Below, one piece after another: positions 252 through 64,000 of a stretch of DNA of 64,000 bases; position 1 is the stretch's first letter; each line of letters starts with the position of its first letter. The position numbers and the translations under genes are program-made. The stretch comes from an uncultured Chloroflexia bacterium (GTDB lineage: Bacteria > Chloroflexota > Limnocylindria > Limnocylindrales > CSP1-4). Below the pieces are notes generated by a model. It was given only the letters and a program-made list of their open reading frames with translations, had not been told where the DNA came from and searched no databases. The DNA lies in NCBI GenBank assembly GCA_963776545.1, contig CAVZND010000006.1, positions 13,565-77,564 of the forward strand, written 5' to 3'.

Positions 252-256
252 GGCCG

Positions 257-4237: not shown

Positions 4238-4320
4238 GGTCGATCTCTCCCTAACCCGAAACCGCCAAGCCGGTGTGACGCGTTCGCTGGGGGGCGCTAG
4301 GGACGCTGGTGCAGGAAATA

Positions 4321-4348: not shown

Positions 4349-4371
4349 TTCAAGTTCGGTCGATCAGGACC

Positions 4372-6510: not shown

Positions 6511-6575
6511 CGACCGCACCCGCCGTGCAGCGTGATCGCGCCGGCGGGGCGGACCGATAGACCCAAGGAGTCAAT

Positions 6576-8477: not shown

Positions 8478-8485
8478 GCCTCGCG

Positions 8486-9754: not shown

Positions 9755-10065
9755 TGGCCGACGGGGCCGATGACGTCGCTCGCCTCGACGCGGTCGTGCA
9801 CGGGCGCGTGCAGGGCGTCGGGTTCCGCTACTTCGCCTGGCGCGAAGCGCAGGACCTCGACCTCGAGGGCTGGGTCGCCAACGAGGCGGATGGCTCGGTC
9901 CGCTGCGTCGCCCAGGGACCGCGCCCTCGGGTCGAGGCGCTGCTGCGACGGCTGGAGGCCGGTCCGGCGGGCGCGATCGTCGACCACGTGGGGGCGACGT
10001 GGCTGCCGGCGTCCGGCCCGCTCGGGCCGTTCTCGGTCCGGAGCGGGGGCCATCGGGGTGATTGA
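9754..10065 (+). CDS. acyP: acylphosphatase
   Basis: 103 aa. Contains the VHGRVQGVGFRYF motif and GWVANEADGSV. The ATG overlaps the holB TGA (TGATG). Confidence 0.85.
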   Translation: MADGADDVARLDAVVHGRVQGVGFRYFAWREAQDLDLEGWVANEADGSVRCVAQGPRPRVEALLRRLEAGPAGAIVDHVGATWLPASGPLGPFSVRSGGHRGD

Positions 10066-10133
10066 CGCCCAACACCATCGGCCGCGATCGAACGGGACCG
10101 AAGGGCTATTCCCACCCTGACCTTCGGGCGCGC

Positions 10134-10409
10134 ATGGTGCGGACGATGGAGCAGAACTCTCTGGCCGAAGAGCTGCCTGCCCTCTACCGAGCCATCCTGG
10201 ATCGGGTCGCTGACCTTGAATCCGACGGCGATCGAGCGGAGGCCGCCCGCGTGCGCGCCACCGCTACCCGGATCTACTCTCGTGCCTGGGACGATTCGGC
10301 CCGGCGCGGCCTGACCAACCTCCTTCGCAGGTCCGCGCCGCTGACCGGCGAGACCGTCCCGGCCCAGCGCCCGGTCCGCCGCCGCCGCGTCGCCGCTTCG
10401 CGAGGCTGA
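10134..10409 (+). CDS. hypothetical small protein
   Basis: Track ORF 10062-10409. The internal ATG at 10134 is preferred. No recognisable motif. Basic C-terminus. Confidence 0.35.
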   Translation: MVRTMEQNSLAEELPALYRAILDRVADLESDGDRAEAARVRATATRIYSRAWDDSARRGLTNLLRRSAPLTGETVPAQRPVRRRRVAASRG

Positions 10410-10469
10410 CCGGACGCACGCCGCCCGCCTGACCTCCCGCGCGAAGCCGTAGGCCGTAGGCTGTAGGCG

Positions 10470-10772
10470 ATGTCCCTGGCGACCGTCGACGACCTGATCG
10501 GACGCGCCCTCGAGGCCTACGCCGCGCTCGAAGCGCTCGGCGAGGAGATCGAGGACGAATGGACCTACGTCACCGACCTCGAGGCCGCCTGGCGAACCCG
10601 CCTCGACGAGGTCGCGGCCGCCCGCCGCGGTGAGACCCTCGTTCCGCCCATCGCCGCTGCGGTCGACCGGGCGATCGAGGAGATCGGCCTCGTGCGCGAC
10701 CCACATCGCGCGATCGACTGGCTCTCGACGTTCCCCCAGGTGGTGCTCGTCGCACTCGGGGAGGGAACGTGA
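10470..10772 (+). CDS. hypothetical protein (100 aa, acidic, helical)
   Basis: GC3-rich frame. GTGA overlap with the next gene indicates co-translation. No recognisable domain. Confidence 0.55.
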   Translation: MSLATVDDLIGRALEAYAALEALGEEIEDEWTYVTDLEAAWRTRLDEVAAARRGETLVPPIAAAVDRAIEEIGLVRDPHRAIDWLSTFPQVVLVALGEGT

Positions 10773-11443
10773 GGTTCCAGGATGCCGCCCGTGATGCCCG
10801 CGCGGTCGTCTACGCGGGCATCCAGGCCGATCCGTCCGTTGCCCAGGCGGCCGCCCTGCTCGCCGACGCGTCGCCGGCCCAACGGGTGCTGGCCCGGGCC
10901 GTGATGAACGGCGAGTCCACCGAACCGGGTGCGTGGCGCGTCATGTTCCCGACGCTCCTGGGGCCCGACGCGACGCAGGCGGACCGCGAGCGCGCCGAGG
11001 CGGTCCTCGCCGCCTCGCTGCGGGTCGCGGATCGCGGCGAACAGGTCCGCAGCCAGGTCCGTGGCGCGATCGTCGAGGCCGTCACCGCCGTGCTCCTGGC
11101 CCGTCGCGTCGGTCCCGATGCCGTGCGCCGCGAGCGCCGCATCCTGTTCGACGGCGTCGCCGCGGAGATCCATCCGTACGACGTGACCGTCGAACGCTCG
11201 GGCGCCGCCGAGGCGTACGACTGCAAGTGGGGCGCGCGCGGCATCGGGCCCGACGTCCTGAACCAGCTCGACGATGCGCGGATCCACGCGGCCGACGAAG
11301 ACGAGTCGCTGGCCGTCTGCCTGGTCGTGTTCGACGCCCGTCGGTCGTGCGAGGTCCGCCTCGACCGCCAGACCGCCCCGACCGCCGGCATCGACCTCGT
11401 GAGCCTCGAGTCGCTCGACCGGCTCGCCGACGCCCGTCCATGA
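10769..11443 (+). CDS. hypothetical protein with a possible PD-(D/E)xK nuclease-like motif
   Basis: 224 aa with GTG start. Contains IVEAV ... HPYDVTV ... EAYDCKWG, whose spacing is compatible with an E/PD/DxK core. Overlaps its neighbours by 4 nt at both ends. Confidence 0.5.
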   Translation: MRFQDAARDARAVVYAGIQADPSVAQAAALLADASPAQRVLARAVMNGESTEPGAWRVMFPTLLGPDATQADRERAEAVLAASLRVADRGEQVRSQVRGAIVEAVTAVLLARRVGPDAVRRERRILFDGVAAEIHPYDVTVERSGAAEAYDCKWGARGIGPDVLNQLDDARIHAADEDESLAVCLVVFDARRSCEVRLDRQTAPTAGIDLVSLESLDRLADARP

Positions 11444-12189
11444 CCGACCGGGGGCCCGGGGCGAACGGGTTCAGCGCCCCGTATCGCGTCCGCTTCGACG
11501 AGGCCGGCCCGGACGGTCTCCTGCGCACGTCGGCGGTCCTGCGCTATGCCCAGGACCTCGCCTGGGTGCACTCCGCCACGCTCGGGTTCGACCGCGCGTG
11601 GTACGCCGTACAGGGCCTGACCTGGCTCGTCCGGGCGGCCGAACTCGCGGTGACGGCGCCCATCGCGGTCGGGGCCACGCTGACCGCGACGACCCGCGTG
11701 GTCGGCTTCCGGCGCGTCTGGTCGCGCCGGCGGACCGACTTCGTCGATGCCGCCGGCCGGCCCCTCGCGTGGATCCACATCGACTGGGTCCTGCTCGACG
11801 CCCGCGGCGCCCCGACGCGGATCCCGGCCGCCTTCGAGGAGATCTTCCGGGCCCCCGCCGCGACGTTCGGCCTGGCCCGGGTGTCCCTCGGCGACCCGCC
11901 GGTGGATGCCTTCCACCGCCCGTTCGCCGTTCGGCCGCAGGAGCTGGATCCACTGGACCACGCGAACAACGCGGTCTACGCCGACTGGCTCGAGGAGGCC
12001 GTCATCGGCGCTGGCGACGTCGACGCGACGCGAACGATCCCGCGCGTCGCCCGCCTGGAGTACGCGCTCCCGGCGGAGGCAGGCGCCTCGGTCGAGTCGG
12101 TCGCGTGGCTCGCCGACGGCGGCTGGTCGTACCGGCTGCTCGGATCGGACGGCGGCGATCGGCTCCGGGCGCGCCTCGAGCGAGGCTGA
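11440..12189 (+). CDS. acyl-ACP thioesterase-like (double hotdog) protein
   Basis: 249 aa from the in-frame ATG at 11440 (ATGA overlap). Two hotdog-like halves: YRVRFDEAGPDGLLRTSAVLRYAQD and RPQELDPLDHANNAVYADWLEEA. Confidence 0.7.
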   Translation: MTDRGPGANGFSAPYRVRFDEAGPDGLLRTSAVLRYAQDLAWVHSATLGFDRAWYAVQGLTWLVRAAELAVTAPIAVGATLTATTRVVGFRRVWSRRRTDFVDAAGRPLAWIHIDWVLLDARGAPTRIPAAFEEIFRAPAATFGLARVSLGDPPVDAFHRPFAVRPQELDPLDHANNAVYADWLEEAVIGAGDVDATRTIPRVARLEYALPAEAGASVESVAWLADGGWSYRLLGSDGGDRLRARLERG

Positions 12190-12218: not shown

Positions 12219-13937
12219 TCAGGCCTCGGGTCGGGCGGCGCCGCTCGTCGTCGTGCCGGCGAGTTCCTGAAGCATCCGCCAGTTCCACAGGCGGTCGTCC
12301 TGCGTCGCGAGGATCTCGGGCGTCGGCGTCCCGTCCGGGGCGAAGTGCGGGGCGAAGCGGCCTTCGGTCCGGGCGAACGCGAGGAAGTCGACCGGTGTCC
12401 CATCGGGCGATGCCGTCCAGTCCTCGCGGAGCGCCGGGTTGCCCTGGAGCGACAGGCGCTCGTGCATCGTCGGGCCGCGCCGCGGGTCGTAGGTGAAGAG
12501 CGGGAACGCGCGCGAGTCGACCGCGAGCTTCGCCTGCCGCGTCGAGGCATCGTCGGCGATGCCGTGCTCCGGCTGGCAGGGCGTGTAGGCGACGATCACC
12601 GCCGGCCCCGGGTAGGCGTTGGCCTCCATCACGGCCCGATAGAAGTGGTTGATGTGGGCCGGCGTCGTCTGGGCGACATAGACGTCGCCGTGGGCCATGA
12701 GGATCCGGCCCAGTTCCTTGCGCCGCTCCGGGCGCCCGTGCTGGGCCTTGCCGAAGGCGGAGAGCTTGGTGACCTGGCCGCCGAATGTCGCCGTCGAGGC
12801 CTGCCCGCCGGTGTTCGAGTAGACCTGCGTGTCGAGGACCAGCACCTTGATGTCGGCACCGGAGGCGACCATCCGGGAGAGGGCCTGGAAGCCGATGTCG
12901 TACATCGCCCCGTCGCCGCCGACGACCCACAGCCGACGATCGGGCTGCCCTTCGGCATCCCAGCGCGCTCGGATCCCGAGCGCCATCGCGGGCGCATTCT
13001 CGAAGAGAGAGTTCGTCCACGGGATCCGGTAGGGGTTGAACGGGTAGGTGCTGCCGTAGACGGTGTTGCAGCCCGTGGCCGCGACCATGCCCATGCTCTC
13101 GGGTCCATGGACCTGGCGAGTCGCGGCGACGAGCATCCGCAGCGCGGTCGCCTCGCCGCAACCGGAGCAAGACCCCGCGCCGCCGACATAGCCGAAGGCA
13201 TGCTCGCCGAGCATCAGGTCCGCGAGTGCCCGTTCGTTGCGGTACTCCAACGGCGTCGGCGGCAGCGACCGGAAGAACCGGAAGTCGCGCTGGACCCGGT
13301 CCAGTGCCCGTTCGCCGCTCGGCTCGAGGGCGGCCTTGTCGATCATGTGCAGGGCGTCATAGCCGAGCTCGTGGCAGACCGACACGCACTCCGAGCAGCC
13401 CTTGCAGTGAAGCGGGTCCACGAAGATGCCGAAGGCGGCCGGCTCCAGGCCACGGCGGGCCGGCACCTCCGCGTACTTCTGGGTCTTGGCGAAGTGGGCG
13501 TCGATGGATGCGCGCGCGACATCCGCGTCGGGCTCGGCCGCCGCGAAGTCGGCGGTCTTGGCCTCGACCTGACCGACTGGCAACGCGATGCCGAGGATGG
13601 CCGTGTCGGGGCAAGCCGTGACGCAGGTCATGCACCCGACACAGGCCTCCCGGATCACGTCCGGGATCAGCGGCGAGAGTCCGCTGAAGTCGCGGCTGGC
13701 GGCCGTCGCCGGCGGGATGATGCTGCGGGCGACGGCCCGGTCGGCCGGGAGCTCGCCGTCAGCCACGTTGCGGCGGTACGCGTCGACCACGGTGCTGTTG
13801 AAGTCGTCCACGTAGGCGTGGACGTCGAAGACCGTCGCGGTCCCGGCGAGGCTGGCCTGGTGGGCCTCCATCGGCTCCCCGACGGCCTTGCGCAGGGTCG
13901 AGGTGGCATGGCCTCCGGGATCGTGCACGGCGGTCAT
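12219..13937 (-). CDS. 2-oxoacid/pyruvate:ferredoxin oxidoreductase, C-terminal half (2x[4Fe-4S] ferredoxin domain plus TPP-binding beta domain)
   Basis: 572 aa. Contains CVGCMTCVTACP and CKGCSECVSVCH, then GGAGSCSGCGEAT and the TPP motif GGDGAMYDIGFQAL...VLDTQVYSNTGGQ. Confidence 0.85.
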   Translation of the reverse strand: MTAVHDPGGHATSTLRKAVGEPMEAHQASLAGTATVFDVHAYVDDFNSTVVDAYRRNVADGELPADRAVARSIIPPATAASRDFSGLSPLIPDVIREACVGCMTCVTACPDTAILGIALPVGQVEAKTADFAAAEPDADVARASIDAHFAKTQKYAEVPARRGLEPAAFGIFVDPLHCKGCSECVSVCHELGYDALHMIDKAALEPSGERALDRVQRDFRFFRSLPPTPLEYRNERALADLMLGEHAFGYVGGAGSCSGCGEATALRMLVAATRQVHGPESMGMVAATGCNTVYGSTYPFNPYRIPWTNSLFENAPAMALGIRARWDAEGQPDRRLWVVGGDGAMYDIGFQALSRMVASGADIKVLVLDTQVYSNTGGQASTATFGGQVTKLSAFGKAQHGRPERRKELGRILMAHGDVYVAQTTPAHINHFYRAVMEANAYPGPAVIVAYTPCQPEHGIADDASTRQAKLAVDSRAFPLFTYDPRRGPTMHERLSLQGNPALREDWTASPDGTPVDFLAFARTEGRFAPHFAPDGTPTPEILATQDDRLWNWRMLQELAGTTTSGAARPEA

Positions 13938-14347
13938 GACCGTCCTCCGACGATGGCCCGGACGACATCGGTCGTCGAGATGATCCCGATGGGGGTCCGC
14001 CCGTCATCGGCCACGACGACGAGCCGGTGGACATGCGCCGACTCCATGCGCTGGATGGCCTCCGCGACGGGCGTGTCGGCCGAGACGGTCAGGGCGGGGG
14101 ACGTCATGAGGTGGCGCGCGGCGAGACCCGGCCAGCGCGACCAGAGGTCGTCCGTGGCACGGGCGCGGATGAGGTCCGTCCGGCTGATCACGCCGACGAG
14201 GTCGCCGTGCGCGTCGACCACCGGCATGCCGCTGACGTCTGCTCGCTCGATGAGATCGGCCACCTTGGGGAGCGGCGTATCCGCGTCCACCAGGATCGGA
14301 TCCCTGGTCATCAGGTCACGGACGAGTCCGTCGCTCGTATCCATCAC
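13934..14347 (-). CDS. CBS-pair (Bateman) domain protein
   Basis: 137 aa with two CBS motifs (VRDLMTRDPILV..., GMPVVDAHGDLVGVISRTDL, HRLVVVADDGRTPIGIISTTDV). ATGA overlaps at both ends. Confidence 0.85.
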   Translation of the reverse strand: MMDTSDGLVRDLMTRDPILVDADTPLPKVADLIERADVSGMPVVDAHGDLVGVISRTDLIRARATDDLWSRWPGLAARHLMTSPALTVSADTPVAEAIQRMESAHVHRLVVVADDGRTPIGIISTTDVVRAIVGGRS

Positions 14348-16323
14348 GAACCCTCCGCTGTCGGCCCGACGGCGATCAGCTCACTGTGTTGCCCTGGGAC
14401 GAGGCCGGTCACCGTGCCGGTCACGTCGATGACGTGGTCGTAGGCGGCCGCGACGACCGCGAGGTTCGCCTCGACGACCGCCCCTCCGCGCTTGCCGAAG
14501 AACCGTGCCAACTGGACCCGGACGGCGTCGAGCAGCGCCGAACGGTCGAGCCCGGCCTCGGTCGCGAACGGCGCGACCCGCAGGAACACCCCGACGAGGG
14601 CCACGCCCTGCATCCGGACGAGCAGGTCCGGCCGCGGGGCGTGCGCCCGGGCGAGGGCGATCGTGTCAAGCGCCCAGACATGGATCCCGCGGGCGAGGAT
14701 CTCCGCCCGGGCGGGGGCCGGGATGGCCGCCCAGATCTCGTCCGGGTGGACGATGGCGGTCTGCACGAAGAGCGATCCGCCGTCGACCAGGCCGTGCAGC
14801 GGGTCGCCCTGACGGAAGGCCGCCACGTCGTGGATCGGCACGAAGTCGACCGTGTCGAGTTCGGCGTGGGCGTGGATCGGCTCGTCCGCGATGATCAGGA
14901 AGTAGCTGGTCGGTAGCCCTTTCTTCTCGGAGCCGTAGCGCGGGTAGGCCTGCACGTGGCGCCCGAACGTCTCGCCGACCAGGGCCGCGAGCAGCTTGTT
15001 GGTCGTGACCGAGCCGAAGCCGCCGATCGAGTGCCCTCGCACCCGGAACGCGCCGTGGGGCATGAGGTCGACCGGGACGCGCTGCAGCGCCAGCGGGTGC
15101 TGGACCCCGAGCACGACGTGGCGACGGGTGTGGGCCTCGGGGTCGGCGAGCCAGTCGAAGCAGGCGACCAGGTCCCCCGGCGTGACGTCGCGGGACCCGA
15201 GGCCCGCCGACGCGGACATGACCCGCGGCATCGGCCAGCTGTCCGACGCCAGGTCGAAGAGGGCCGCCTTCACCTCACGGGTCAGCGGATTGCTCCCGGC
15301 GGCCGGGTCGTCGGTCCGCTCGACCACGCCGACCGTCCGAGCGCCATGAAGCGCGTGAGCCAGCGCCTCCGCCGGGAAGGGTCGGAACGCCGTGACCGTC
15401 ACGCTGCCGACGGTCCGTCCCTTCGCGCGCAGGTGGTCGACGACCGCGGCGGCGGTGTCGGCGAGCGTGCCCATGGACACGACGATCTCGGTGGCGTCCT
15501 CGCAGCGGTAGGCATCGATGGGCGCGTACGGGCGGCCGGTCAGCGACGTCCACGACGTCATCGCCGACTCGAGCGCCTCGGGCAGACGGTCGTAGAAGGC
15601 GCGCTGCCCGATCCGGCCCTTCATGTAGCTGTCCTGGTTCTGGACCACGCCGGTCATCAGGGCCTCACCAGGGTCGAAGTAGCTCCGGATGTGCTCGCGA
15701 GGATCGCCGACGAAGTCGCGCAGCAGGGCATCCTCGGGCAGGCGCAGGTCCTCGAGCGTGTGGGTCGTCAGGAAGCCGTCCTGGACGACGAAGAACGGGG
15801 TCTCGGTCTCCTCCGCCACCTTGCGCGCGATGGCCGTCAGGTCGGCGGCCTCCTGGGCGTTCCTCGCGAAGACCATGCCCCAGCCGGTGTCCGCGACGCC
15901 CATGACGTCGTCGTGGCCGGCGTGGATGTTGAGGGCCTGGCTCGTCAGCGCACGGGCGCCGACGTGGAACACCACGGGCAGGCGCTTGCCGGAGATGACG
16001 TAGAGGACCTCCTTCATGAGGATCAGGCCCTGGCCGGCCGTGAAGTTCACGACCCGCCCGCCGGCGAGGGCGAAGCCCTCCGCGGCGGACGCCGACGAGT
16101 GCTCGGACTCGGGCTCGATGAACTGGAGGCCGGTGCCCCACAGGTTGGTCCGGCCGTCGGCGACCGCCGCCTGGAAGATCGCCGCCATCGTGGTCGATGG
16201 CGTGATCGGGTAGGCGCAGGCCGCCTCGGCGATCCGCGTCTCGACGGAGGCGATCGCCTCCGACCCGTCGACGATGGCCCTGGTCCCGGGGAACGGCGGC
16301 GAGGCGGCGCCTGACCTGGTCAT
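14344..16323 (-). CDS. 2-oxoacid/pyruvate:ferredoxin oxidoreductase, N-terminal half (domains I-II-III: alpha plus gamma)
   Basis: 659 aa. Contains GSEAIA...AYPITPSTT, EHSSASAAEG, the domain III motif GFGSVTTNKLL and YGSEKKGLPT. Confidence 0.85.
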   Translation of the reverse strand: MTRSGAASPPFPGTRAIVDGSEAIASVETRIAEAACAYPITPSTTMAAIFQAAVADGRTNLWGTGLQFIEPESEHSSASAAEGFALAGGRVVNFTAGQGLILMKEVLYVISGKRLPVVFHVGARALTSQALNIHAGHDDVMGVADTGWGMVFARNAQEAADLTAIARKVAEETETPFFVVQDGFLTTHTLEDLRLPEDALLRDFVGDPREHIRSYFDPGEALMTGVVQNQDSYMKGRIGQRAFYDRLPEALESAMTSWTSLTGRPYAPIDAYRCEDATEIVVSMGTLADTAAAVVDHLRAKGRTVGSVTVTAFRPFPAEALAHALHGARTVGVVERTDDPAAGSNPLTREVKAALFDLASDSWPMPRVMSASAGLGSRDVTPGDLVACFDWLADPEAHTRRHVVLGVQHPLALQRVPVDLMPHGAFRVRGHSIGGFGSVTTNKLLAALVGETFGRHVQAYPRYGSEKKGLPTSYFLIIADEPIHAHAELDTVDFVPIHDVAAFRQGDPLHGLVDGGSLFVQTAIVHPDEIWAAIPAPARAEILARGIHVWALDTIALARAHAPRPDLLVRMQGVALVGVFLRVAPFATEAGLDRSALLDAVRVQLARFFGKRGGAVVEANLAVVAAAYDHVIDVTGTVTGLVPGQHSELIAVGPTAEGS

Positions 16324-16325
16324 GG

Positions 16326-17030
16326 CTAGCGGATCGACGGGAACACCAGGTCGTTCGCGTTCCCCTCGACCCGGCTGTCGTCGAGGATCCAGGAGAGCTC
16401 GGCGTCCAGGCGGATGACGCCCGGGACGACGGCGACGAGCCGCTCGATCAGTTCGGCGACGGACCGCGTCTCGGCCTGGCCGCGCATGCGGACGACCCCG
16501 TTGGTCACCGTGATGTCGAAGAGGACCGGATTGACGAGCAGGTGTCGCAGCAGGACGTCCTGGCGGATCGTCTCGGCGATCTGGTCGTCGGATCGAACGT
16601 AGGCCCGGATGAGGTCGGCCCGGGTGACGATCCCGACGAGGACGCCGTCCCGGGTCACCGGCAGTCGGTTGACGGCACGATCGACCATGATGGCCGCGGC
16701 GGCCGGCAGCGAGGCTTCCGGCGCGATCGTGATCGCGGGTGAGCTCATCGCCTCACCGGCGGTCGCCGCCTCGACCTTCGCGCGGGCCGACTTGGTCGAC
16801 TTCGACTCGCCGAGGACGCGCGCCCCGCGGCGATGCGGCAGCCCGTCGGCGCCGCGCTCCTTGATGAGAAGGTCGGCCTCGGAGACGACTCCGACGACGT
16901 GCTGATCGGCGTCGACGACCGGCAGGCCGCTGATCGCGCCCGCCACGAGGAGCCGCGCGACCTGCTTGAGTGGGGTGTCTGTGTGGACCGCCGTCACCGG
17001 CGCGGTCATGACGTCATGGACAGTCAACAT
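16326..17030 (-). CDS. CBS-pair plus BON domain protein
   Basis: ATG at 17030 is preceded by AGGAAGG. Two CBS motifs are followed by a BON-like C-terminus (ITVTNGVVRMRGQAETRSVAELIERLVAVVPGV). Its stop lies 2 nt before the por N-half start. Confidence 0.8.
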   Translation of the reverse strand: MLTVHDVMTAPVTAVHTDTPLKQVARLLVAGAISGLPVVDADQHVVGVVSEADLLIKERGADGLPHRRGARVLGESKSTKSARAKVEAATAGEAMSSPAITIAPEASLPAAAAIMVDRAVNRLPVTRDGVLVGIVTRADLIRAYVRSDDQIAETIRQDVLLRHLLVNPVLFDITVTNGVVRMRGQAETRSVAELIERLVAVVPGVIRLDAELSWILDDSRVEGNANDLVFPSIR

Positions 17031-17165
17031 CGTGGATACCAAGCCTTCCTGATGGGACCGTGCAGAGGTCGATCCCGAACCTGACTTTGCGCGTCGCTCG
17101 AGCCTCCAGGCAGGGTCGAAAGTCACTTTCCGACGGGCACTGCGGACGTCACCGACCGCGGCGGC

Positions 17166-17996
17166 TCAGAGCGTGGTGTTCGCGACAGCGAGGTTGCGGG
17201 ACGTGACCGCGGCCAGGCGCATCGCCTGGGTCGGCGTGAGCCGCCCGCAGACGCGGTCCCAGTGGATCGCGACGTCGTCGCCCGGCCGCAGGACGTCGCC
17301 GAACCCGTCGCCGGCCGCGATCGACAGGCGCTCGAGGCGTGGCAAGCCGAGGCGGAGTCGCCCATCGACCAGCTCGAGTGGCGGGAGCTCCACGTCGAGC
17401 GCGTCGGCGGCCGTGGACGCCACCCGTCCCGGTCGGACGAGGCAGCGCTCCAGCACGCCGATGAGGTCCGGCGGGAGGCCGCCGCGGATCAGTCCGATGC
17501 GCGGCAGGATCTCCAGCACGTGGAAGCTGTGATGGACGGCCGACGGGCCGTCGGCCTTCGCCTCGAGCCAGCGCCACTCGCGCTGCGACGCACGCCCTCG
17601 GAACCGCTCGGTCAGGTCGTCGTGCCGCGCCCGGGGCCCCACGCGATCGAGGAGGTCGTTGCCGAGCCAGTACGCCTCGACGACGCGGGCGTCCAGCGGG
17701 TCGGCGATGTCGTTCTCCGAGGCGATGAGCTCCAGGTACGGGTACGCGCCCTCGAAGCCCCGCGCGATCCGCGACAGCTCCGGATCCGGTCGCCCGGCCC
17801 TCACCCGCTCGGGCAGCGTCAGGCCGGACTCCGGCCCGCACAGCCCGAGGCGGTTCGGCGGGAAGGCGAAGCGCGCGAACAGGAGCGGTCCCGGGAGCCA
17901 GCACCCCACGAGCCCGTCGCGGCCGCGCTCGACGCCGGGCGCGGCGGCGCCCTCGCGCTCAGCGCGGTCCACGGCTGGCGCAAGGGCGACGGTCAC
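17166..17996 (-). CDS. conserved-looking hypothetical protein (276 aa) at the end of the hydrogenase operon
   Basis: GTG at 17996 overlaps the DMT transporter stop (GTGA). Sequence includes FPPNRLGLCGP, FEGAYPYLELIASEN, VVEAYWLGNDLL. I cannot assign a characterised family. Confidence 0.6.
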   Translation of the reverse strand: MTVALAPAVDRAEREGAAAPGVERGRDGLVGCWLPGPLLFARFAFPPNRLGLCGPESGLTLPERVRAGRPDPELSRIARGFEGAYPYLELIASENDIADPLDARVVEAYWLGNDLLDRVGPRARHDDLTERFRGRASQREWRWLEAKADGPSAVHHSFHVLEILPRIGLIRGGLPPDLIGVLERCLVRPGRVASTAADALDVELPPLELVDGRLRLGLPRLERLSIAAGDGFGDVLRPGDDVAIHWDRVCGRLTPTQAMRLAAVTSRNLAVANTTL

Positions 17997-18934
17997 GCCG
18001 CGACCTCGCCCGTCGATCCGGTGCCCGGCAACGCCCGACGGCGACCGGCCGCCGTCAGGGCGACGAGTCCGACGCCGAGGGCCAGCAACGCGAGGCCGGC
18101 CACCGCGGTGGGCGCCGGGACGGTGCCCGCGCGGACCGAGGTCAGCGCCGCCGTGACGAGCGCGCCACCGACGAGGACCGAGGTCACGAGGCTCGCCGGG
18201 GCACGCTGCAGTGCGGCATACCAGGTCGTGACATAGCCGAGGAGCAGGACGCCGGTCGCGGCGACGATCGCCCACTGCCCCGCGGAGAACGCGGCGATGG
18301 CGCCCAGTCGACCCGACGCCACGAGGAACCCGACGATGATCACCGCGCCCAGCGCCATCCGGGCGGTCGTCGCGAGCCCGACGCTGACGCGATCCTCGCC
18401 CAGGAGTCGACGGGCGATGACGACCTCGGCCGACCAGAGCAGCGTGGCGGCCAGGATCATGATCTCGGCCGGTCCGACGCCGATCGAGCCGGTCGGCCCG
18501 ATAAGCATGACGCCGCCGAACAGCGCGATCAGCGCGATCACCTGGGCGAGCCCGAGCGATTCGCGCAGGAACACGACGGCCAGGCCGGCGACCCAGATGA
18601 AGAGGGTCTTGTGGATCAGCGCGGCTCCGGGTCCCGTCGCCTCGGCGAGCCCGCTGAAGAACAGGATGAACGGCACGCTCCCGCCGATGAGCGCGATGGC
18701 CGCGAGGCCCGCGGCGTCCGTCCGGCGCAGGGACGCCACCTCGCGGGCACCGCCCCGCGCGACCAGGAGCCCGAGCAGGACGAGGCCGACGAGCAGGTTG
18801 CGGGCGCCGGTCAGGGCGACGGGGTCGCTGAACTCCTTGACGACGAGCCCGTTGACGAAGATCGAGAGGCCGGAGATCGTGGCCGTGGCCGCGGCCAGCG
18901 CGATGCCCCATCCGGTCGTGCGCGGGATCGACAT
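17993..18934 (-). CDS. EamA/DMT-superfamily transporter
   Basis: 313 aa with ~10 hydrophobic helices in the duplicated EamA-like pattern. Confidence 0.75.
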   Translation of the reverse strand: MSIPRTTGWGIALAAATATISGLSIFVNGLVVKEFSDPVALTGARNLLVGLVLLGLLVARGGAREVASLRRTDAAGLAAIALIGGSVPFILFFSGLAEATGPGAALIHKTLFIWVAGLAVVFLRESLGLAQVIALIALFGGVMLIGPTGSIGVGPAEIMILAATLLWSAEVVIARRLLGEDRVSVGLATTARMALGAVIIVGFLVASGRLGAIAAFSAGQWAIVAATGVLLLGYVTTWYAALQRAPASLVTSVLVGGALVTAALTSVRAGTVPAPTAVAGLALLALGVGLVALTAAGRRRALPGTGSTGEVAA

Positions 18935-18943
18935 GATGTCCTC

Positions 18944-19192
18944 CTAGGGTGTGGATCGGTCAGCGGGAAGGACCTGCGTCCGCAGGGCCGGGGGTCGTTG
19001 GATCGCGTCGAGGGCCGCCTCGTCGTCCGGCGCGACACGCCCGAGGACGACCCCGAGGCCGACGAGGACGAGGTCACCCGGGACGAGGTCCGGGACCATC
19101 AGTGACAGTGCGTTGCGCCGGACCTCGCCGAGGTCGACGACGGCCATGCCATCCTCGACGGCGACGACCCGGCCGACGGTGGTCCGGCACAT
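18944..19192 (-). CDS. hypC: HypC/HupF-family hydrogenase assembly chaperone-like protein
   Basis: 82 aa. N-terminal Met-Cys (MCRTTVGRVVAV), then the DG.AVVD...GDLVLV...G pattern typical of HypC. Confidence 0.7.
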   Translation of the reverse strand: MCRTTVGRVVAVEDGMAVVDLGEVRRNALSLMVPDLVPGDLVLVGLGVVLGRVAPDDEAALDAIQRPPALRTQVLPADRSTP

Positions 19193-19195: not shown

Positions 19196-19720
19196 TCAGG
19201 CCTCCCGACCCGGCGCGCGGGCCGCCGCGACCGGATCGGCCAGGCGATCGAGCGCCGAACCGATGGCCGTGCCGAACGCCGGCATCGCAGCACGGGCGGC
19301 GACCGACAATGCGGCGCCGTACCCGAACTCGCCGCCGGCGAGGCCGATGAAGCGGCCGTCGATGGGTCCGCCGCGCAGGATCGCCGCCAGGCGCACGACC
19401 AGGTCGATCGGCAGCTGATGCGACGAGCGCGGCGTGAACCCGGGCTGCTCGGTCAGTTCGTCGAGCGACAGCTCGACGATCGAGCCCGGCTCGACCCCGA
19501 CGACCGCGTCGAGGATGAGGCACGACCCGCCCGCGGGGAGCTCGACGAGGTCCTCGACGCGCAGCTCCAGGCAGCGCAGGACGTTCAGGCGCGCGAGCAG
19601 CTCGGCCGAGAGGGTCGGCATGAGCGCTGCGACCGTCGCGGCCGCGACGCCGTCGTCGCCGCGATCGGCATTCCCGCAGACGATGACCTGGACGAGGGGT
19701 TCGACGAGGGCTGTCGTCAT
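19196..19720 (-). CDS. hydrogenase maturation endopeptidase (HyaD/HycI/FrhD family)
   Basis: 174 aa from the ATG at 19720 (ATGA overlap with the large-subunit stop). Contains VIVCGNADRGDDGVA, ILDAV and SSHQLPI. Confidence 0.8.
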   Translation of the reverse strand: MTTALVEPLVQVIVCGNADRGDDGVAAATVAALMPTLSAELLARLNVLRCLELRVEDLVELPAGGSCLILDAVVGVEPGSIVELSLDELTEQPGFTPRSSHQLPIDLVVRLAAILRGGPIDGRFIGLAGGEFGYGAALSVAARAAMPAFGTAIGSALDRLADPVAAARAPGREA

Positions 19721-21033
19721 GGCGCGGCCTCGATCGTCAGGTCCAGGAAGTGGGTCGCGCACGAGATGCACGGGTCGTAGCTCCGGATCAGCTGCTCGAG
19801 CCGATGGGTCGCGACGTCGTGGGGCAGGTCGAGGATGGCCGGTGCGAACGCGGCCATGTCGGCCTCGATGGCGACCTGGTTCTGGCTCGTCGGCGGGACG
19901 ATGCTGGCGGTCGCGATCCGCCCGCGATCGTCGAGTTCGTAGTGATGGAACAGCAGGCCGCGCGGGGCTTCGGTCGCCCAGGCGGCCGTGCCAGGCCCCG
20001 GTGTCCACGGCTGGGCGGCGCGGTCCGGCTCGACGTAGCCGTCGACGATGTCCATGGCCTCGGCGACCGCGTGCACCAGCTCGATGGCCCGGGCGGCGAT
20101 GCTCCGATACGGGTTGCGCCGGATCGCATCGGCGAGACCGATCCGGTCGAGCGCGGCCCGCGCCTGGGGATGCAGCTGATCAGCCGCCAGGGTGATCCGG
20201 GCCGCCGGGCCGAGGAGGTACGGGACCCGATCGGGCATGCGCGCCTGGAGTGCGTGCGACCAGGGGACCTGCTCCTCGTGGAAGACCGCCTCCCAGTCGG
20301 TCGGGGCGAGATCGACGCCGTCGGACGACACGATCCGTCCGTCGTTCATCGGGTATTCGGACGGATGTCGCAATGAGACGAAGCGCTCGTCGCGCTCGAA
20401 GTCGGGTGTCGTGAACGTCGCGACCCAGTCGACCGTCTCGATGGCCCGCTTGAGGGAAGCCTCCAGGTCGCTTCGCAGGACCTCGAGCTCGCGCCTGGCG
20501 GGGACCTTCGAGAACCCGCCGACCCGGACGCTGACGGGATGGATGGGTCGGCCACCGAGGATCGCCACGATCCGGTTGCCGGTCTTCTTGAGGGCCAGGC
20601 CGCGCTCGACGGCCGCCTTGTCGAGGGCGGCGAGCTCGACGGCGTTGGCACAGCCGAGGAAGTCGGGCGCGTGCAGCAGGTAGAGGTGCAGCGCGTGGCT
20701 CTCGATCCATTCGCCGCAGTACAGCAGTCGACGCAGCGACCGCACCGAGGGCTCGATCGTCACCCCGGCCAGGTCCTCGAACGCGTGCACCGCGGACATC
20801 TGGTAGGCGACCGGGCAGATCCCGCAGATCCGCGCGACGATGTCGAGGACCTCGTCCGGCGTCCGGCCGACGACGAGTCGCTCGAAGTACCGCGGGGCCT
20901 CGAAGATCGCGAGCTGGGCCTCGTCGACCCGACCGTCGCGCACGACCAGGCGGAGCGAGCCCTCGCCTTCGACGCGGGTCAGCCCGGCGACCTCGAAGCG
21001 CCGCTCGACGCCCGTGACGTTGGTGCCATGCAT
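19717..21033 (-). CDS. hyhL: [NiFe] hydrogenase large subunit, cytoplasmic group 3 (3b-like)
   Basis: 438 aa. RVEGEG near the N-terminus, L1 motif RICGICPVAY, L2 motif DPCISCATH followed by a short cleavable tail FLDLTIEAAP. Confidence 0.9.
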   Translation of the reverse strand: MHGTNVTGVERRFEVAGLTRVEGEGSLRLVVRDGRVDEAQLAIFEAPRYFERLVVGRTPDEVLDIVARICGICPVAYQMSAVHAFEDLAGVTIEPSVRSLRRLLYCGEWIESHALHLYLLHAPDFLGCANAVELAALDKAAVERGLALKKTGNRIVAILGGRPIHPVSVRVGGFSKVPARRELEVLRSDLEASLKRAIETVDWVATFTTPDFERDERFVSLRHPSEYPMNDGRIVSSDGVDLAPTDWEAVFHEEQVPWSHALQARMPDRVPYLLGPAARITLAADQLHPQARAALDRIGLADAIRRNPYRSIAARAIELVHAVAEAMDIVDGYVEPDRAAQPWTPGPGTAAWATEAPRGLLFHHYELDDRGRIATASIVPPTSQNQVAIEADMAAFAPAILDLPHDVATHRLEQLIRSYDPCISCATHFLDLTIEAAP

Positions 21034-21863
21034 CAGGTCTTCCCTCCGCCCGGACCGGCGACCGGCGGCCCACCCAGGGCGTCGATGACCTCCCGGAATG
21101 GCCGGGCCGACGCGGTGAAGCCCGAGAAGAGCCGGGCGACGTCGGCGTCCGAGCGACCGTCACGTCCGAACCATCGGGCGAGACTGGCGGCGTTCGCCGC
21201 CTCGCGCGGCCCGAAGCATCCGTAGCAGCCGCGCGCGAAGGCCGGGCACAGGGCACCGCAGCCGGTCTGGGTCACCGGGCCCAGGCACGGCCCGGCCCCG
21301 GTCACGAGCACGCAGACCGTCCCGCGCCGCTTGCACTCGAGGCAGACCGATTCGTCCGGCAGCTGCGGCCGACGACCGACGACGAGCGCCGTCAGCAGCT
21401 CGAGCAGCTGGCCGGGGTCGATCGGGCAGCCGCGAAGCTCGGCGTCGACGGCGACATGGTCGGCGATCGGCGTTGACGTGGCGAGGGACTCGACGTATTC
21501 GGGATGCGCGTAGACCGCCGCCCGGTACGCATCGTGGTCGCCCCAGTTGCGGAGCGCCTGGATCCCGCCCGCGGTGGCGCAGGCGCCGATCGTCACGAGC
21601 AGGGGCGTCTCCTGTCGGATGCGCAGGATCTCCTCGGCCTGCTCGGGCGTGCTGATCGAGCCCTCGACCAGGACGATGTCGAACGGACCCGACGAGCGAT
21701 ACGAGGACGCCTCGGCGAACTCAACGAGGTCGAACCGCTGGAGCAGGTCGAGCAGGTTGTCCTCGAGGTCGAGCAACGTCAGTTGGCAACCGTCACACGA
21801 GGCGAACTTCATGACGCCCAGCCGTGGCCGCGACCGGATGCTGGCTCGGGCCGCGCCGGTCAT
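21033..21863 (-). CDS. hyhS: [NiFe] hydrogenase small subunit (NuoB-like), group 3
   Basis: 276 aa from the ATG at 21863 (TGATG junctions at both ends). Contains KFASCDGCQ, GACATAGG, and a C-terminal Cys-rich FeS region CLECKRRGTVC ... CGALCP ... GCYGC. Confidence 0.85.
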   Translation of the reverse strand: MTGAARASIRSRPRLGVMKFASCDGCQLTLLDLEDNLLDLLQRFDLVEFAEASSYRSSGPFDIVLVEGSISTPEQAEEILRIRQETPLLVTIGACATAGGIQALRNWGDHDAYRAAVYAHPEYVESLATSTPIADHVAVDAELRGCPIDPGQLLELLTALVVGRRPQLPDESVCLECKRRGTVCVLVTGAGPCLGPVTQTGCGALCPAFARGCYGCFGPREAANAASLARWFGRDGRSDADVARLFSGFTASARPFREVIDALGGPPVAGPGGGKT

Positions 21864-23866
21864 CAGAGCCCCTCTTGGCCGAAGGCCGGGCCGAGCTCCT
21901 CGAGCGAGAAGACCGGGCCGTCGCGGCAGACGAAGGCCTTGCCGAGCTGGCAATGGCCGCACAGCCCGACCCCGCACTCCATGTGCCGCTCGAGCGTGAC
22001 GAAGATTCGATCGTCGGTGACCCCGCGGTCACGGAGGACGCTGACGGTTGCCTCCATCATCCGTTCCGGGCCGCAGATGAACGCGACGGCGCCGGGACCG
22101 TCCAGATGGCCCTGATCGAAGAGACTCGTGACGACGCCGACGCGCCCGAACCAGTCCGGCCCGGCGCGGTCGACGATCTGCCCGACGTCCAGGTCGGGAC
22201 GGGCGGCGAGGTCGGATAGCTCCTCGACGTAAAGGCGGTCGGCCGGGCTCCTGGCGCCGTACAGCAGCCGGATCTCGCCGAACCGGATGCGATCGGCCAG
22301 CAGCGCGTCCATGAGCGGCCGCAGGGGTGCGAGGCCGATCCCACCCGTCACGACGACGACATCGTGGCCGGCGGCCGCATCGACCGGCCAGCCCCGGCCC
22401 ATCGGGCCGCGCAGGCCGAGCGAGTCGCCGCGGCGGAGGCCGCACAGCGCTCGGGTGGCGGCCCCGGCTGCGCGGATCGTCAATTCGAGACCGTCCGGGT
22501 GGAACCTCGAGACGGAGATGGGCGCGGCCGAGAAGGCCGGCAGCGCGGCCATCACGAATTGGCCGGGCCGGCCCGCTCGGAGTGCCGGATCGTCGGTCTC
22601 GAGCCGCAGGGTGACCGTGTCGTGCGTCTCGCGCCGGTGTTCGACGACGAAGGCCCGCGCGTAGGTCGGCGGCGGCTCGGCCGGGTCGGGCAGGGCCACC
22701 GACGCGAGCTGGAAGGCCGGACTCGGGTCGAGCCGGATCGGCTCCACGTCGGCGTCGGGCGGCGGTGCCACCGCCAGCAGCTCCTCGCGGACGTCGATGC
22801 CGACCGGGCACCACGTGATGCAGCGGCCACAACCGACGCAGCCGGACATCCCGAACTGATCCCACCACGTGCCGAACTTGTGCGTCAGCCACTGCCGGTA
22901 CCGGTCCTGCACGCGCGGGCGGAAGTTCCCGCCGGCCACGCGGGCGAACCCGAGCGTGAAGCAGCTGTCCCAGGTCCGCTCGGCCACGGCGTCGATGCCG
23001 TCGAGGTCCGAGACCTGGGTGACCCCGGTGCAGAAGCAGGTCGGACAGACGAGCGTGCAGTTGGCACAGGCGAGGCAGCGCTCGGCGATCTCCGCCCAGC
23101 GCGGGCTGTCCGCCGCGGCGATGAGCCGAGCCGGGAGTCCCGCGGTCGGGACCGGGTCGCCGATCCGATCGCGCGCGGCCGCGACGGCGCCGCTGGCCTC
23201 GGACCGTTGCCCCTCGCTGGCGGGCGACAGGTCGAGGCGTGCCAGCAGGTCGTCACCGGCGGCCGAGCCGGCACGGACGACGAACCCGTCGTCGAGCTCG
23301 GTCATCGCGAGGTCGAACCCGGTCGTCACTTCCGGGCCGGTGCCCATGGACGTGCAGAAGCACGTGTCGGCGGGCGTCACGCACTCGACCGCCACGATGA
23401 AGGCTGCCGCCCGTCGGGCCGTGTAGTCGCGGTCGATGGCCGGTCCGTGCGCGAGGACGGCATCCTGTGTCAGCAGCGCGGCGATCTCGCATCCTCGGAC
23501 ACCGAGGAATGCCACCGGTGGGACCGGTGGCATCGCGTCCTCGAAGGTGGCCTGACCCTCGACCCGTCGGCCGAGGGTGATCGGAACGCGGGGCGGGAAT
23601 GTCTCCTGTTTCCAGGCCGTCGGACCGACCGCGTAGTCGAATTGGCGCTCCGTCCCCGTCTGCCGGAGCCGGTACGTGCCGGGCGCCTGGTCGGCCGTCC
23701 AGCCGGCAGGCAGTTCGGCCGACGACCGGATCTCCGCGTAGACGATGGCGCCGCCGCTGGCCGTCGGCCCGATGATCCGCCGGCCGTCTTCGGCGAGCAG
23801 GTCGAGCAGGTGGTCGAGGTCGCTCCGCGGCAGGAAGCCCGGGGCGGCACGGACGTCGGTCACCAT
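21863..23866 (-). CDS. fused hydrogenase beta-gamma diaphorase subunit (AsrA/HydB-like 4Fe-4S domain plus HydG/AsrB-like FAD/NAD(P)-binding domain with C-terminal 2Fe-2S)
   Basis: 667 aa. Contains CLACANCTLVCPTCFC and CVGCGRCITWCP, then a PyrK-like half with VVVTGGIGLAPL and CGVGLCGHCQ. Confidence 0.85.
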   Translation of the reverse strand: MVTDVRAAPGFLPRSDLDHLLDLLAEDGRRIIGPTASGGAIVYAEIRSSAELPAGWTADQAPGTYRLRQTGTERQFDYAVGPTAWKQETFPPRVPITLGRRVEGQATFEDAMPPVPPVAFLGVRGCEIAALLTQDAVLAHGPAIDRDYTARRAAAFIVAVECVTPADTCFCTSMGTGPEVTTGFDLAMTELDDGFVVRAGSAAGDDLLARLDLSPASEGQRSEASGAVAAARDRIGDPVPTAGLPARLIAAADSPRWAEIAERCLACANCTLVCPTCFCTGVTQVSDLDGIDAVAERTWDSCFTLGFARVAGGNFRPRVQDRYRQWLTHKFGTWWDQFGMSGCVGCGRCITWCPVGIDVREELLAVAPPPDADVEPIRLDPSPAFQLASVALPDPAEPPPTYARAFVVEHRRETHDTVTLRLETDDPALRAGRPGQFVMAALPAFSAAPISVSRFHPDGLELTIRAAGAATRALCGLRRGDSLGLRGPMGRGWPVDAAAGHDVVVVTGGIGLAPLRPLMDALLADRIRFGEIRLLYGARSPADRLYVEELSDLAARPDLDVGQIVDRAGPDWFGRVGVVTSLFDQGHLDGPGAVAFICGPERMMEATVSVLRDRGVTDDRIFVTLERHMECGVGLCGHCQLGKAFVCRDGPVFSLEELGPAFGQEGL

Positions 23867-24339
23867 GGTTCATCGACCGGATGGGAGAAAAGGTCGAGGA
23901 GCTGCATGCGGGTGGCGACGAGGCGGCTCGCCAGGGCGGCCAGCAGCGATCGGTAGACGGCCGCGGCGAGGACCGGATCGGCATCGAGCTCGGCCCGCAG
24001 GGCATCGCCATCGAGCAGGGCGAGCTCGGTCGGCGCGAGCGCGACCACGGTCGAGGTGGCTCGGTGCGGTGGCACGACCACCGACCATCCGATGATGTCT
24101 CCCTCCTCGACGGTCAGGATGGAGGTCGCGCCGCGCTCCGGGACACGGAGGCGCAGCGCCACCCGGCCCCGGATGACGATGCCGAGGTCGCGGGTGGGAT
24201 CGCCCTCGCGCAGGATCTCGGTTCCGGCCGCATACGACGCCGTGCGGATGAGCGCGTCCAGCCTCGCCACCGCCGCCTCGGGCAGGCTCGCCCCGAACGA
24301 TGTGCCGCGCAGCGACGCGGACTGCCTTCCGTCGATCAT
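23860..24339 (-). CDS. stand-alone cyclic-nucleotide-binding (cNMP/Crp-type effector) domain protein
   Basis: ATG at 24339 is preceded by GGAAAGG. Beta-roll sequence GTEILREGDPTRDLGIVIRGRVAL...EEGDIIGWS. No HTH follows. The stop overlaps the start of the beta-gamma gene by 7 nt. Confidence 0.75.
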   Translation of the reverse strand: MIDGRQSASLRGTSFGASLPEAAVARLDALIRTASYAAGTEILREGDPTRDLGIVIRGRVALRLRVPERGATSILTVEEGDIIGWSVVVPPHRATSTVVALAPTELALLDGDALRAELDADPVLAAAVYRSLLAALASRLVATRMQLLDLFSHPVDEPW

Positions 24340-24573: not shown

Positions 24574-24975
24574 ATGAAGCGGATCCTGCTGGCCTATGAC
24601 GGCACCGAACCGGCGCGTAGAGCGCTCGAGACGGCCGCCGACCTGGCCAAGAAGTACGAAGCGAGCGTGACCGTCGTGAGCGTCGTCCCGGTGCATCCAG
24701 GCCGCGCCCCGATCGATCCTTGGGATGACGTCGAGGTCCACGACGCCCAGCTGCGTGAGGCCGACCTGGCGCTTCGGGCGCTCGGCATCGAAGCCAAGCT
24801 GCTGGAGCCCGCCGGAGATCCGGCATCGTCCATCGAGCGGGTGGCTGCCAAGGGCGAATTCGACATGATCGTCATCGGAGCCCGGGGTCTCAGCACGATC
24901 GGGCGGATGCTGCAGGGCAGCGTCTCGGCCCACGTGGCGACCCACGCCCAGACCGACGTCGTCATCGTCCGCTGA
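24574..24975 (+). CDS. universal stress protein (UspA family)
   Basis: 133 aa. Reads ILLAYDGTEPARRAL ... MIVIGARGLS...GSVS..V......DVVIV. SD is AAAGGAG. Confidence 0.85.
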   Translation: MKRILLAYDGTEPARRALETAADLAKKYEASVTVVSVVPVHPGRAPIDPWDDVEVHDAQLREADLALRALGIEAKLLEPAGDPASSIERVAAKGEFDMIVIGARGLSTIGRMLQGSVSAHVATHAQTDVVIVR

Positions 24976-47730: not shown

Positions 47731-47739
47731 AGTCGAGGC

Positions 47740-60380: not shown

Positions 60381-60384
<4 letters not shown>
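59326..60384 (-). CDS. dihydroorotate dehydrogenase-like (TIM-barrel flavoprotein) protein coupled to PFOR
   Basis: 352 aa from the ATG at 60384 (ATGA overlap with the PFOR stop). Contains LELRSPIVASAAP, ADALELNVY, IKLSP and LVLFNRF. Confidence 0.75.

Positions 60385-64000
<3,616 letters not shown>

Follow-up and report, generated by a model that had tools for sequence, protein, structure and literature searches.

Split PFOR locus and its genes

The stretch of DNA considered here (64,000 nucleotides, about 70% G+C, positions 13,565 to 77,564 of contig CAVZND010000006.1 from an uncultured Chloroflexia bacterium; hereafter the window) carries on its minus strand four closely packed genes that encode, in order of transcription, a protein with a pair of CBS motifs and a BON domain (CBS-BON), the N-terminal half of a split pyruvate:ferredoxin oxidoreductase (PFOR), a stand-alone CBS pair (a Bateman module), and the C-terminal half of the same enzyme (Table 1). 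A preliminary description, made by reading the window, had reported these four packed genes, and all four open reading frames (ORFs) were recovered where it had placed them. The CBS-BON frame is read from the ATG at 17030, giving the product chosen by gene callers in relatives.

The junctions between these genes are tight. CBS-BON and the N-half are separated by 2 nucleotides (nt), as read from the sequence (TAG, cc, ATG), and the CBS pair and the C-half share an ATGA overlap, both as the preliminary description had it. Its second ATGA overlap, between the N-half and the CBS pair, has to be corrected: the overlap is GTGA (4 nt) or, should translation begin at the ATG of the next codon, TGATG (1 nt).

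Table 1. Coordinates of the split PFOR module, its upstream cluster and the monolithic paralogue in the window
Feature	Position	Strand	Basis
CBS-pair + BON protein, 234 amino acids (aa), lineage-specific upstream partner	16326..17030	-	Pfam CBS x2 + BON
PFOR N-half, 659 aa, domains I-II-III, alpha-gamma-like, predicted to bind thiamine pyrophosphate (TPP) pyrimidine and coenzyme A (CoA)	14344..16323	-	POR_N, PFOR_II, POR; 1B0P alignment
Stand-alone CBS pair between enzyme halves, 137 aa from GTG or 136 aa from next ATG	13934..14347	-	Pfam CBS x2
PFOR C-half, 572 aa: remnant of domain IV; domain V with two [4Fe-4S] clusters; domain VI with the proximal cluster and the site for the TPP diphosphate	12219..13937	-	Fer4 models, TPP_enzyme_C; 6CIN alignment
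Intergenic region, 135 nt, 5' of CBS-BON, with conserved footprint GTGACTTTCGACCC at 17113-17126; possible internal promoter/operator	17031..17165	-	Four-locus alignment
DUF6390 protein, 276 aa	17166..17996	-	PF19927 E 1.7e-68; same place in L084, L087
EamA-family transporter	17993..18934	-	Pfam; same place in L087
HypC/HupF hydrogenase maturation protein	18944..19192	-	
Hydrogenase maturation protease	19196..19717	-	TIGR00072 58.7 bits (cut-off 47.45)
[NiFe] hydrogenase large subunit, sulfhydrogenase (group 3b) type	19717..21033	-	NiFeSe_Hases; best NCBIfam ShyA, HydA, below cut-offs
Hydrogenase small subunit (delta type), ATG at 21863	21033..21863	-	Oxidored_q6; best ShyD, HydD, below cut-offs
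Fused beta-gamma diaphorase (Fer4_22, NAD_binding_1, DHODB Fe-S)	21863..23866	-	Best ShyB+ShyC/HydB+HydG, below cut-offs
Small cyclic nucleotide monophosphate (cNMP)-binding-domain protein, first gene of cluster, ATG 24339	23860..24339	-	PF00027
Universal stress protein (Usp), divergent from hydrogenase-PFOR cluster	24574..24975	+	PF00582 E 1.7e-29
Monolithic PFOR paralogue (comparison only, outside the module)	60381..63998	-	TIGR02176 1736 bits (cut-off 911); EKR present

Intact catalytic residues and a separate clade

Profile searches with Pfam assigned POR_N (3e-58), PFOR_II (2.5e-18) and POR (1.8e-27) to the N-half, Fer4 dicluster models and TPP_enzyme_C (5e-15) to the C-half, and two CBS motifs to each of the CBS proteins (E 7e-33 for the 137-aa protein, 1.5e-28 for CBS-BON), together with a BON domain in residues 147-212 of CBS-BON (PF04972, 31.8 bits, cut-off 27), so that the POR, ferredoxin, TPP, CBS and BON domains named in the preliminary description are all borne out. 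Among the NCBIfam models, that of the monolithic PFOR (TIGR02176) ranks first for both halves, with 364 bits for the N-half and 208.5 bits for the C-half, and the PorA, PorB, PorC and PorD models also match. The curated cut-off of TIGR02176 (911 bits) refers to a single chain, and neither half of this two-polypeptide enzyme reaches the NCBIfam equivalog cut-offs. The nearest solved structures are, again for both halves, the monolithic PFORs 1B0P (D. africanus) and 6CIN (M. thermoacetica), of which the N-half covers residues ~5-608 (7-606 of 1B0P) and the C-half residues ~650-1110 (649-1107 of 6CIN).

Residue conservation was judged on an alignment of 68 family members. The substrate and TPP residues T41, E74 and R124 of the N-half (T31, E64 and R114 of the D. 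africanus enzyme) are invariant in 68/68, and the CoA loop GG(F/Y)GS...N(K/R) is conserved, its glycines, Ser and Asn being invariant. The two CxxCxxCxxxC motifs of domain V in the C-half (C99, C102, C105, C109 and C178, C181, C184, C188) have their eight ferredoxin cysteines in 67 of the 68 sequences, that is, in every sequence aligning there, and in domain VI the proximal-cluster cysteines (C257, C260, C290, C454), the GDG at 341-343 and YSNTGGQ are again invariant in all 68, so that the split enzyme retains 12 of 12 cluster cysteines. With these residues intact, it looks like a catalytically competent PFOR, and its probable substrate is pyruvate (or another small 2-oxoacid), as suggested by the conserved substrate residues and by acetyl-CoA hydrolase/transferase genes in its neighbourhood.

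The two halves differ from a monolithic chain in the region where they are cut. The Pfam EKR domain (domain IV, PF10371), detected in the monolithic paralogue, is matched by neither half; residues ~61-95 of the C-half can be aligned with the EKR region of 6CIN, EKRG being replaced by RDFSG. The head of the C-half, about 60 residues conserved family-wide (LFDVxAYVDDFN...ELPAD.GVARS.IPP.TAA.RDFS), corresponds in the alignment to the last part of domain IV in 6CIN, which places the cut between domains III and IV. The preliminary description had located it at the joint of domain III and the ferredoxin domain: the cut after domain III stands, with the amendment that a domain-IV remnant heads the C-half.

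Are these genes merely the decaying remnants of a PFOR, with the CBS genes as unrelated insertions? The genome does hold a complete monolithic PFOR besides, and the halves remain below the equivalog cut-offs. This explanation, which we consider hardly credible, is already refuted by conservation: both halves are kept at 60-80% identity across phyla, their catalytic and cluster residues are invariant in the 68 sequences, and the four ORFs of the locus have a third-position G+C of 0.85-0.91, typical of coding sequence, with no internal stops. The loss of TPP or cluster ligands, named in the preliminary description as a sign of inactive remnants, was thus not found.

The split enzyme is likewise not a split copy of the resident monolithic PFOR. 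The latter, a full-length paralogue according to the preliminary description, is indeed a genuine monolithic PFOR, which reaches the window end about 7 residues short; the split halves are only 29-37% identical to it, so that the split enzyme is no recent fission of that gene. It belongs instead to an old, separate clade of 2-oxoacid:ferredoxin oxidoreductases (OFORs). Thousands of C-half homologues of about the same length, and N-half homologues likewise, are found at 60-80% identity in metagenomes and metagenome-assembled genomes (MAGs), the carriers being MAGs of Chloroflexota (Limnocylindria), Dormibacteraeota, Rokubacteria/Methylomirabilota, Binatia and Acidobacteriota, and the nearest GTDB relatives being Limnocylindria MAGs. 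The only un-split relative seen, P0310, is a partial singleton of 47% identity, in which the N- and C-halves are fused directly with no CBS. Another N-half homologue (P0323, on the contig of L032) carries an N-terminal receiver of about 130 aa (Response_reg, 26 bits, below cut-off), a singleton that may represent a gene-call extension.

A CBS pair kept between the enzyme halves

Conservation of the gene order, for which the preliminary description had proposed a neighbourhood survey, was examined in the 80 best loci, with one genome per GTDB species, whose ORFs were searched with the four window proteins. Both halves are present in 74 non-redundant GTDB loci, and a CBS-pair ORF lies between them in 63 of these (61 full-length and separate, one frameshifted in L001, one partial in L076). 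The order N-half, CBS, C-half also occurs in five further contigs with independent gene calls and Pfam CBS matches (L084, L086, L087, L088 and L089). According to their record titles, the loci belong to Chloroflexota (mostly Limnocylindria), Rokubacteria/Methylomirabilota, Binatia, Acidobacteria, Dormibacteraeota and a few others. The recurrence of the same order in 63/74 loci is far beyond chance.

The codon overlaps recur as well: among the 61 loci with a full-length, separate CBS gene, the stop of the N-half and the start of the CBS gene overlap by 4 nt in 44, and the CBS stop overlaps the C-half start in 41. These counts used the start nearest the stop, which biases them to small gaps; an exact -4 overlap still needs a specific sequence. 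Pairwise identities of the three proteins are closely correlated (r=0.92 for N-half and CBS, 0.90 for C-half and CBS, 0.92 for the two halves), the CBS gene being inherited with the halves as closely as these are with one another. In a neighbour-joining tree, the loci lacking the CBS gene stand one by one among carriers of the gene, dispersed over several clades; this pattern indicates that the CBS gene was present ancestrally and was sporadically lost; two of them, L049 and L081, keep a CBS ORF next door.

The interleaved CBS proteins form a separate group of orthologues. Out of 1.84 billion representatives, no more than 9 were matched at E<=1e-30, the top matches being stand-alone proteins of 131-171 aa, and within the loci the orthologues score 63-183 bits, against 13-35 bits for other CBS ORFs. 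Structures of CBS domains define a ribose-site motif G-h-h-S/T-x-x-D/N, and the type G-h-h-S-x-x-D is found in both repeats of the window protein (GVISRTD at 52-58, GIISTTD at 121-127). Across 58 orthologues its G, S and D are at least 95% conserved, as are the fuller patterns G52-V-x-S55-x-T57-D58 and G121-x-x-S124-x-x-D127; a W-x-G motif in the CBS linker is equally conserved, with the Pro between at 60-80%. The protein contains no cysteine.

The preliminary description had spoken of a Bateman module inserted at the split. The gene does lie at the split point, and its product is a separate polypeptide rather than an inserted domain, since all candidate fusions turned out to be frameshifts or doubtful calls. 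The 811-aa POR-CBS product of L001 results from a frameshift, the N-half continuing in another frame and the CBS gene having its own Met. P0249, from a search with a chimeric junction query that was built to rank fusions first and returned singletons only, contains garbled, frameshifted stretches, and P0308, found on a long contig prone to errors, is without domain I. The long matches of the CBS search are multi-CBS proteins of 28-35% identity. The CBS pair has truly accompanied the split PFOR clade for a long time, as a separate polypeptide whose translation is coupled to that of the enzyme halves.

CBS-BON, an addition of the window's lineage

The upstream CBS-BON gene has a much narrower distribution. 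It lies directly 5' of the N-half in the three closest contigs, L084 (96%), L087 (94%) and L086 (84%, where BON is also called), and in 0 of the 80 GTDB loci; among the latter it occurs elsewhere in L041 only, 7 kb away and on the other strand. CBS-BON is kept in L086 despite flanks quite different from those of the other close contigs, which argues for a real link within the lineage. Taken as a general part of the system, as in the preliminary description, CBS-BON does not hold up: it is a local addition of the window's close clade (84-96% identity).

A plain CBS-pair gene with no BON domain lies directly 5' of the N-half in L080 (2884-3378) and L081 (5026-5523), which belong to a distant Methylomirabilota-like clade; L081 has no interleaved CBS gene. 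Upstream CBS genes have been recruited independently, as CBS-BON in the window's clade and as a plain CBS gene in L080 and L081.

Genomic context of the module

The PFOR genes form the end of a co-directional cluster of 12 kb, which is led by the cNMP-binding gene, followed by the hydrogenase genes; the preliminary description had missed this context. The hydrogenase is assigned to the group 3b type by its set of subunit profiles, all of which score below the equivalog cut-offs, and its beta-gamma diaphorase fusion is the same in 17-18 related loci. M. smegmatis has a group 3b hydrogenase, Hyh, which is fermentative and is activated by DosS/T-DosR under hypoxia (bioRxiv 10.1101/2023.09.11.557286).

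Neighbouring genes were clustered over 82 sequences, namely 81 related loci and the window. A Usp gene is found in 28/82, an acetyl-CoA hydrolase/transferase in 25/82 (30 copies, of which 27 lie upstream in the same orientation), a DosS-like GAF-HisKA_3 kinase in 19/82, the hydrogenase beta-gamma gene in 18/82, the NiFe large subunit in 17/82 (in 11 of them 0.5-3 kb upstream and on the strand of the PFOR genes), a cNMP-binding gene in 14/82 (and also in L089), and a second, four-subunit POR in 13-18/82. In three gene-called contigs (L001, L002 and L088) the GAF-HisKA_3 kinase is accompanied by an adjacent GerE response regulator, and in L088 the module adjoins the GerE regulator, the GAF kinase and three Usp genes.

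The cNMP-hydrogenase unit of the window (19196-24339) turns up again 5' of the split PFOR in 11 GTDB loci, from MAGs that carry the labels of different phyla, and in L089 (Dormibacteraeota) the hydrogenase operon (1-5374) runs straight into the PFOR genes. An operon for a POR of the four-subunit type (gamma, beta, alpha, delta) is found 3' of the split PFOR on the opposite strand in 13-18 related loci, among them L089 (10128-12899), L046 (13762-14421) and L057 (14365-14655).

The intergenic footprint 5' of CBS-BON (GTGACTTTCGACCC; reverse strand GGGTCGAAAGTCAC) is conserved when four related loci are aligned. The footprint looks like half of a DosR palindrome and overlaps the perfect palindrome GAAAGTCACTTTC. 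The DosR-box-like pattern is not enriched in the window, and the palindrome GAAAGTNACTTTC is unique. A scan of 11.9-25.2 kb found no sigma-70 promoters or intrinsic terminators, and Rfam and tRNA scans of the window gave no matches.

Proposed function and alternative explanations

Why is a CBS gene kept between the two halves of an enzyme? Its retention hints at a regulatory partner proper to this enzyme, and we lean, by a modest degree, towards a module that consists of a split pyruvate (or small 2-oxoacid):ferredoxin oxidoreductase with a dedicated CBS-pair partner, probably ligand-gated, and that serves under hypoxia or energy limitation. An old, widely kept and translationally coupled module is made up of three of the genes, one porAG-like (domains I-II-III), one for the CBS pair and one porDB-like (domain-IV remnant, V and VI); in the window's lineage CBS-BON has been added upstream as a putative second partner. 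The enzyme would convert pyruvate and CoA into acetyl-CoA and CO2, and a low-potential acceptor would receive the electrons via three [4Fe-4S] clusters. Most likely, the CBS protein would bind the enzyme, sense an adenosine-containing ligand (AMP, ADP, ATP, possibly CoA or acetyl-CoA) and tune PFOR activity or assembly. Such binding and tuning are proposed because AMPK gamma, CBS-pyrophosphatase, IMPDH and the CBSX-thioredoxin pair behave in this way; similarly, gating by nucleotides or energy charge is plausible in view of the conserved G-h-h-S-x-x-D motifs and of what CBS pairs do elsewhere, and the conserved order and codon overlaps suggest that the CBS protein and PFOR could form a stable, non-covalent complex. 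Judging from its neighbours, the enzyme would work under oxygen or energy limitation, its acetyl-CoA being converted to acetate and its electrons finally released as H2. In this scheme we infer the binding of the CBS protein to the enzyme, its ligand, the direction of regulation, the pyruvate substrate and hypoxic expression.

A more far-reaching form of this proposal, which we advance tentatively as a possibility rather than an expectation, would make the CBS pair a stoichiometric third subunit and the enzyme the first allosterically gated OFOR: by reading the adenylate or the CoA/acetyl-CoA pool, it would switch pyruvate oxidation on only when respiration fails, tying energy charge to fermentative H2 production via the adjacent group-3b hydrogenase, and in some lineages a second CBS partner (CBS-BON here, a plain CBS protein in L080/L081) would add a further input, such as membrane or osmotic state.

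Several observations weigh against a dedicated regulatory partner in a hypoxia programme. The CBS gene is absent between the halves in 11/74 loci and is not structurally essential, and no CBS-PFOR fusion occurs among the best 150 representatives of the CBS-protein search. A comparison of conserved columns after loss of the CBS gene yielded 4 scattered relaxed columns from 7 sequences, which speak neither for nor against an interface. Co-inheritance, as reflected in the identity correlations, is expected for any linked genes and shows no contact, and some MAG phylum labels may be binning errors (L029 nests among Chloroflexota). As to hypoxia, the DosR-box-like pattern is found 3 times in the window against 2.35 expected, and no DosR-like regulator is among the annotated window genes. 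Group 3b hydrogenases use NAD(P)H and not ferredoxin, which leaves an electron route from PFOR to H2 unexplained.

A rival explanation sees in the CBS-pair protein (and in CBS-BON) a general dormancy or stress factor that is only co-transcribed with the enzyme and acts elsewhere, like Hrp1 (Rv2626c) or the archaeal CBS ribosome hibernation factors. The best solved matches of both CBS proteins are indeed archaeal CBS-domain ribosome hibernation factors (9ZNI, 9ZNF, 9ZNG, 9E6Q, 9SR9), plus Rv2626c; Usp and DosS-like genes abound in related loci, BON-domain and Usp proteins are raised under hypoxia in the Burkholderia Lxa locus (PMC12973609), and the lack of a PFOR fusion and the existence of CBS-less relatives would be natural for such a factor. 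We nevertheless consider it unlikely: a free factor has no reason to stay between the enzyme halves with overlapping codons in 63/74 loci while other neighbours vary, nor would one expect the interleaved proteins to be an orthologue group of their own. We regard as improbable a structural or assembly subunit devoid of sensing, which would hold the two polypeptides together where the monolithic chain has its covalent III-IV link, or would keep oxygen away from the clusters in the manner of domain VII of the D. africanus PFOR. The position of the gene exactly at the split point and the undetected EKR domain speak for such a role, and the hosts, probably aerobic, would have to guard an enzyme that oxygen damages. 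Yet the N-half tails and C-half heads are the same in loci with and without the CBS gene, and the CBS-less split relatives keep the catalytic residues too, so that the halves probably assemble alone; moreover, the strict conservation of both ligand-site motifs is unexpected for a purely structural protein, and the absence of cysteine also argues against this role.

Comparison with known systems and significance

PFOR is a central, well-studied and oxygen-sensitive enzyme of anaerobic metabolism, and we know of no dedicated regulatory subunit for any of its described forms (monolithic, four-subunit, two-subunit). The split enzyme shares with monolithic PFORs (1B0P, 6CIN, TIGR02176) the domain order I-II-III-(IV)-V-VI, the TPP, substrate and CoA-loop residues and three sets of [4Fe-4S] ligands; it differs in its two chains cut between domains III and IV, with a CBS gene at the cut, and in its undetected EKR domain. 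With the four-subunit POR/VOR enzymes (9BT4; archaeal PorABCD), for which no CBS partner is known to us, it has in common a multi-subunit OFOR organization and the same domain set, whereas here alpha and gamma are fused, as are delta and beta, in the monolithic order instead of gamma-delta-alpha-beta.

As regards the CBS protein, a Bateman module that is a separate polypeptide with a catalytic partner has counterparts in the gamma subunit of AMPK/SNF1 and in plant CBSX1/2, which activate thioredoxins and are among the PDB matches of the CBS proteins; here the pairing is a proposed one, and AMPK gamma has four CBS motifs as opposed to a single CBS pair. CBS-pyrophosphatase, IMPDH, OpuA, MgtE and ClC similarly have a Bateman module with ribose-site motifs tied to a partner. 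To our knowledge, no OFOR with a CBS-type partner is known. Hrp1, of the mycobacterial DosR regulon, is also a small, stand-alone CBS pair in a hypoxia-type neighbourhood (weak match, 1XKF/1Y5H), but it lies outside any enzyme operon, and the similarity is that of CBS domains in general (E ~5e-8 to one repeat of CBS-BON). The M. smegmatis Hyh locus resembles the window in its sulfhydrogenase-type NiFe hydrogenase with maturation genes, and the relatives of the window locus carry DosS/DosR-like genes and Usp; in the window, unlike in Hyh, the beta and gamma subunits are fused and a cNMP-binding protein leads the operon, and we know of no PFOR or CBS-PFOR module at the mycobacterial locus.

The module may be part of the way in which supposedly aerobic bacteria survive without oxygen, a role suggested because it stands beside hypoxia-type regulators, Usp genes and a hydrogenase of the fermentative type. 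If the split clade has a conserved CBS partner, this would be the earliest indication that an OFOR is under direct allosteric control, in phyla that are abundant in soil and groundwater and mostly uncultured (Limnocylindria, Dormibacteraeota, Rokubacteria/Methylomirabilota, Binatia). As the module is small, with three or four genes, it is directly testable by co-expression. The arrangement of a split PFOR with a CBS gene is apparently undescribed: the OFOR domain arrangements summarised in PMC8091585 include none with a CBS component, and a literature search on CBS partners of PFOR or OFOR, and on CBS proteins with DosR or in Limnocylindria, found nothing relevant, in keeping with the preliminary description, whose author knew of no such architecture.

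Other features of the window

On the other side of the split PFOR, the window carries on the plus strand (10467-12189) a trio of genes for a 100-aa and a 224-aa protein, both without a Pfam match, and an acyl-ACP thioesterase; the same trio lies beside the split PFOR in the close relative L087 (8541-10260) and in L088 (1925-3693), whose PFOR C-half is labelled Polarisedimenticolia. At lower coordinates, a gene for a 638-aa NYN-domain protein (6561-8477, plus strand) is followed by a very G+C-rich stretch (0.74-0.76; 8000-12000) that holds an acylphosphatase gene and several putative small ORFs without family matches.

A region at 46800-51559 encodes an ArsR-type regulator, DsrE-like proteins, a sulfide:quinone-reductase-like flavoprotein, a hemerythrin and a Flavodoxin_5 protein; ArsR-DsrE-TusA-DsrE and Flavodoxin_5 genes are also found near the split PFOR elsewhere (L001, 4376-5998; L088, 14156-14686).

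The monolithic PFOR paralogue lies in surroundings (54428-63998) that include a DHO_dh-like gene (59326-60540), a PhaC-like synthase (58212-59294), a thiolase (54428-55729) and an acetoacetyl-CoA-reductase-like short-chain dehydrogenase/reductase (55730-56593). This neighbourhood suggests a route from pyruvate through acetyl-CoA to polyhydroxybutyrate (PHB) storage, apart from the split enzyme.

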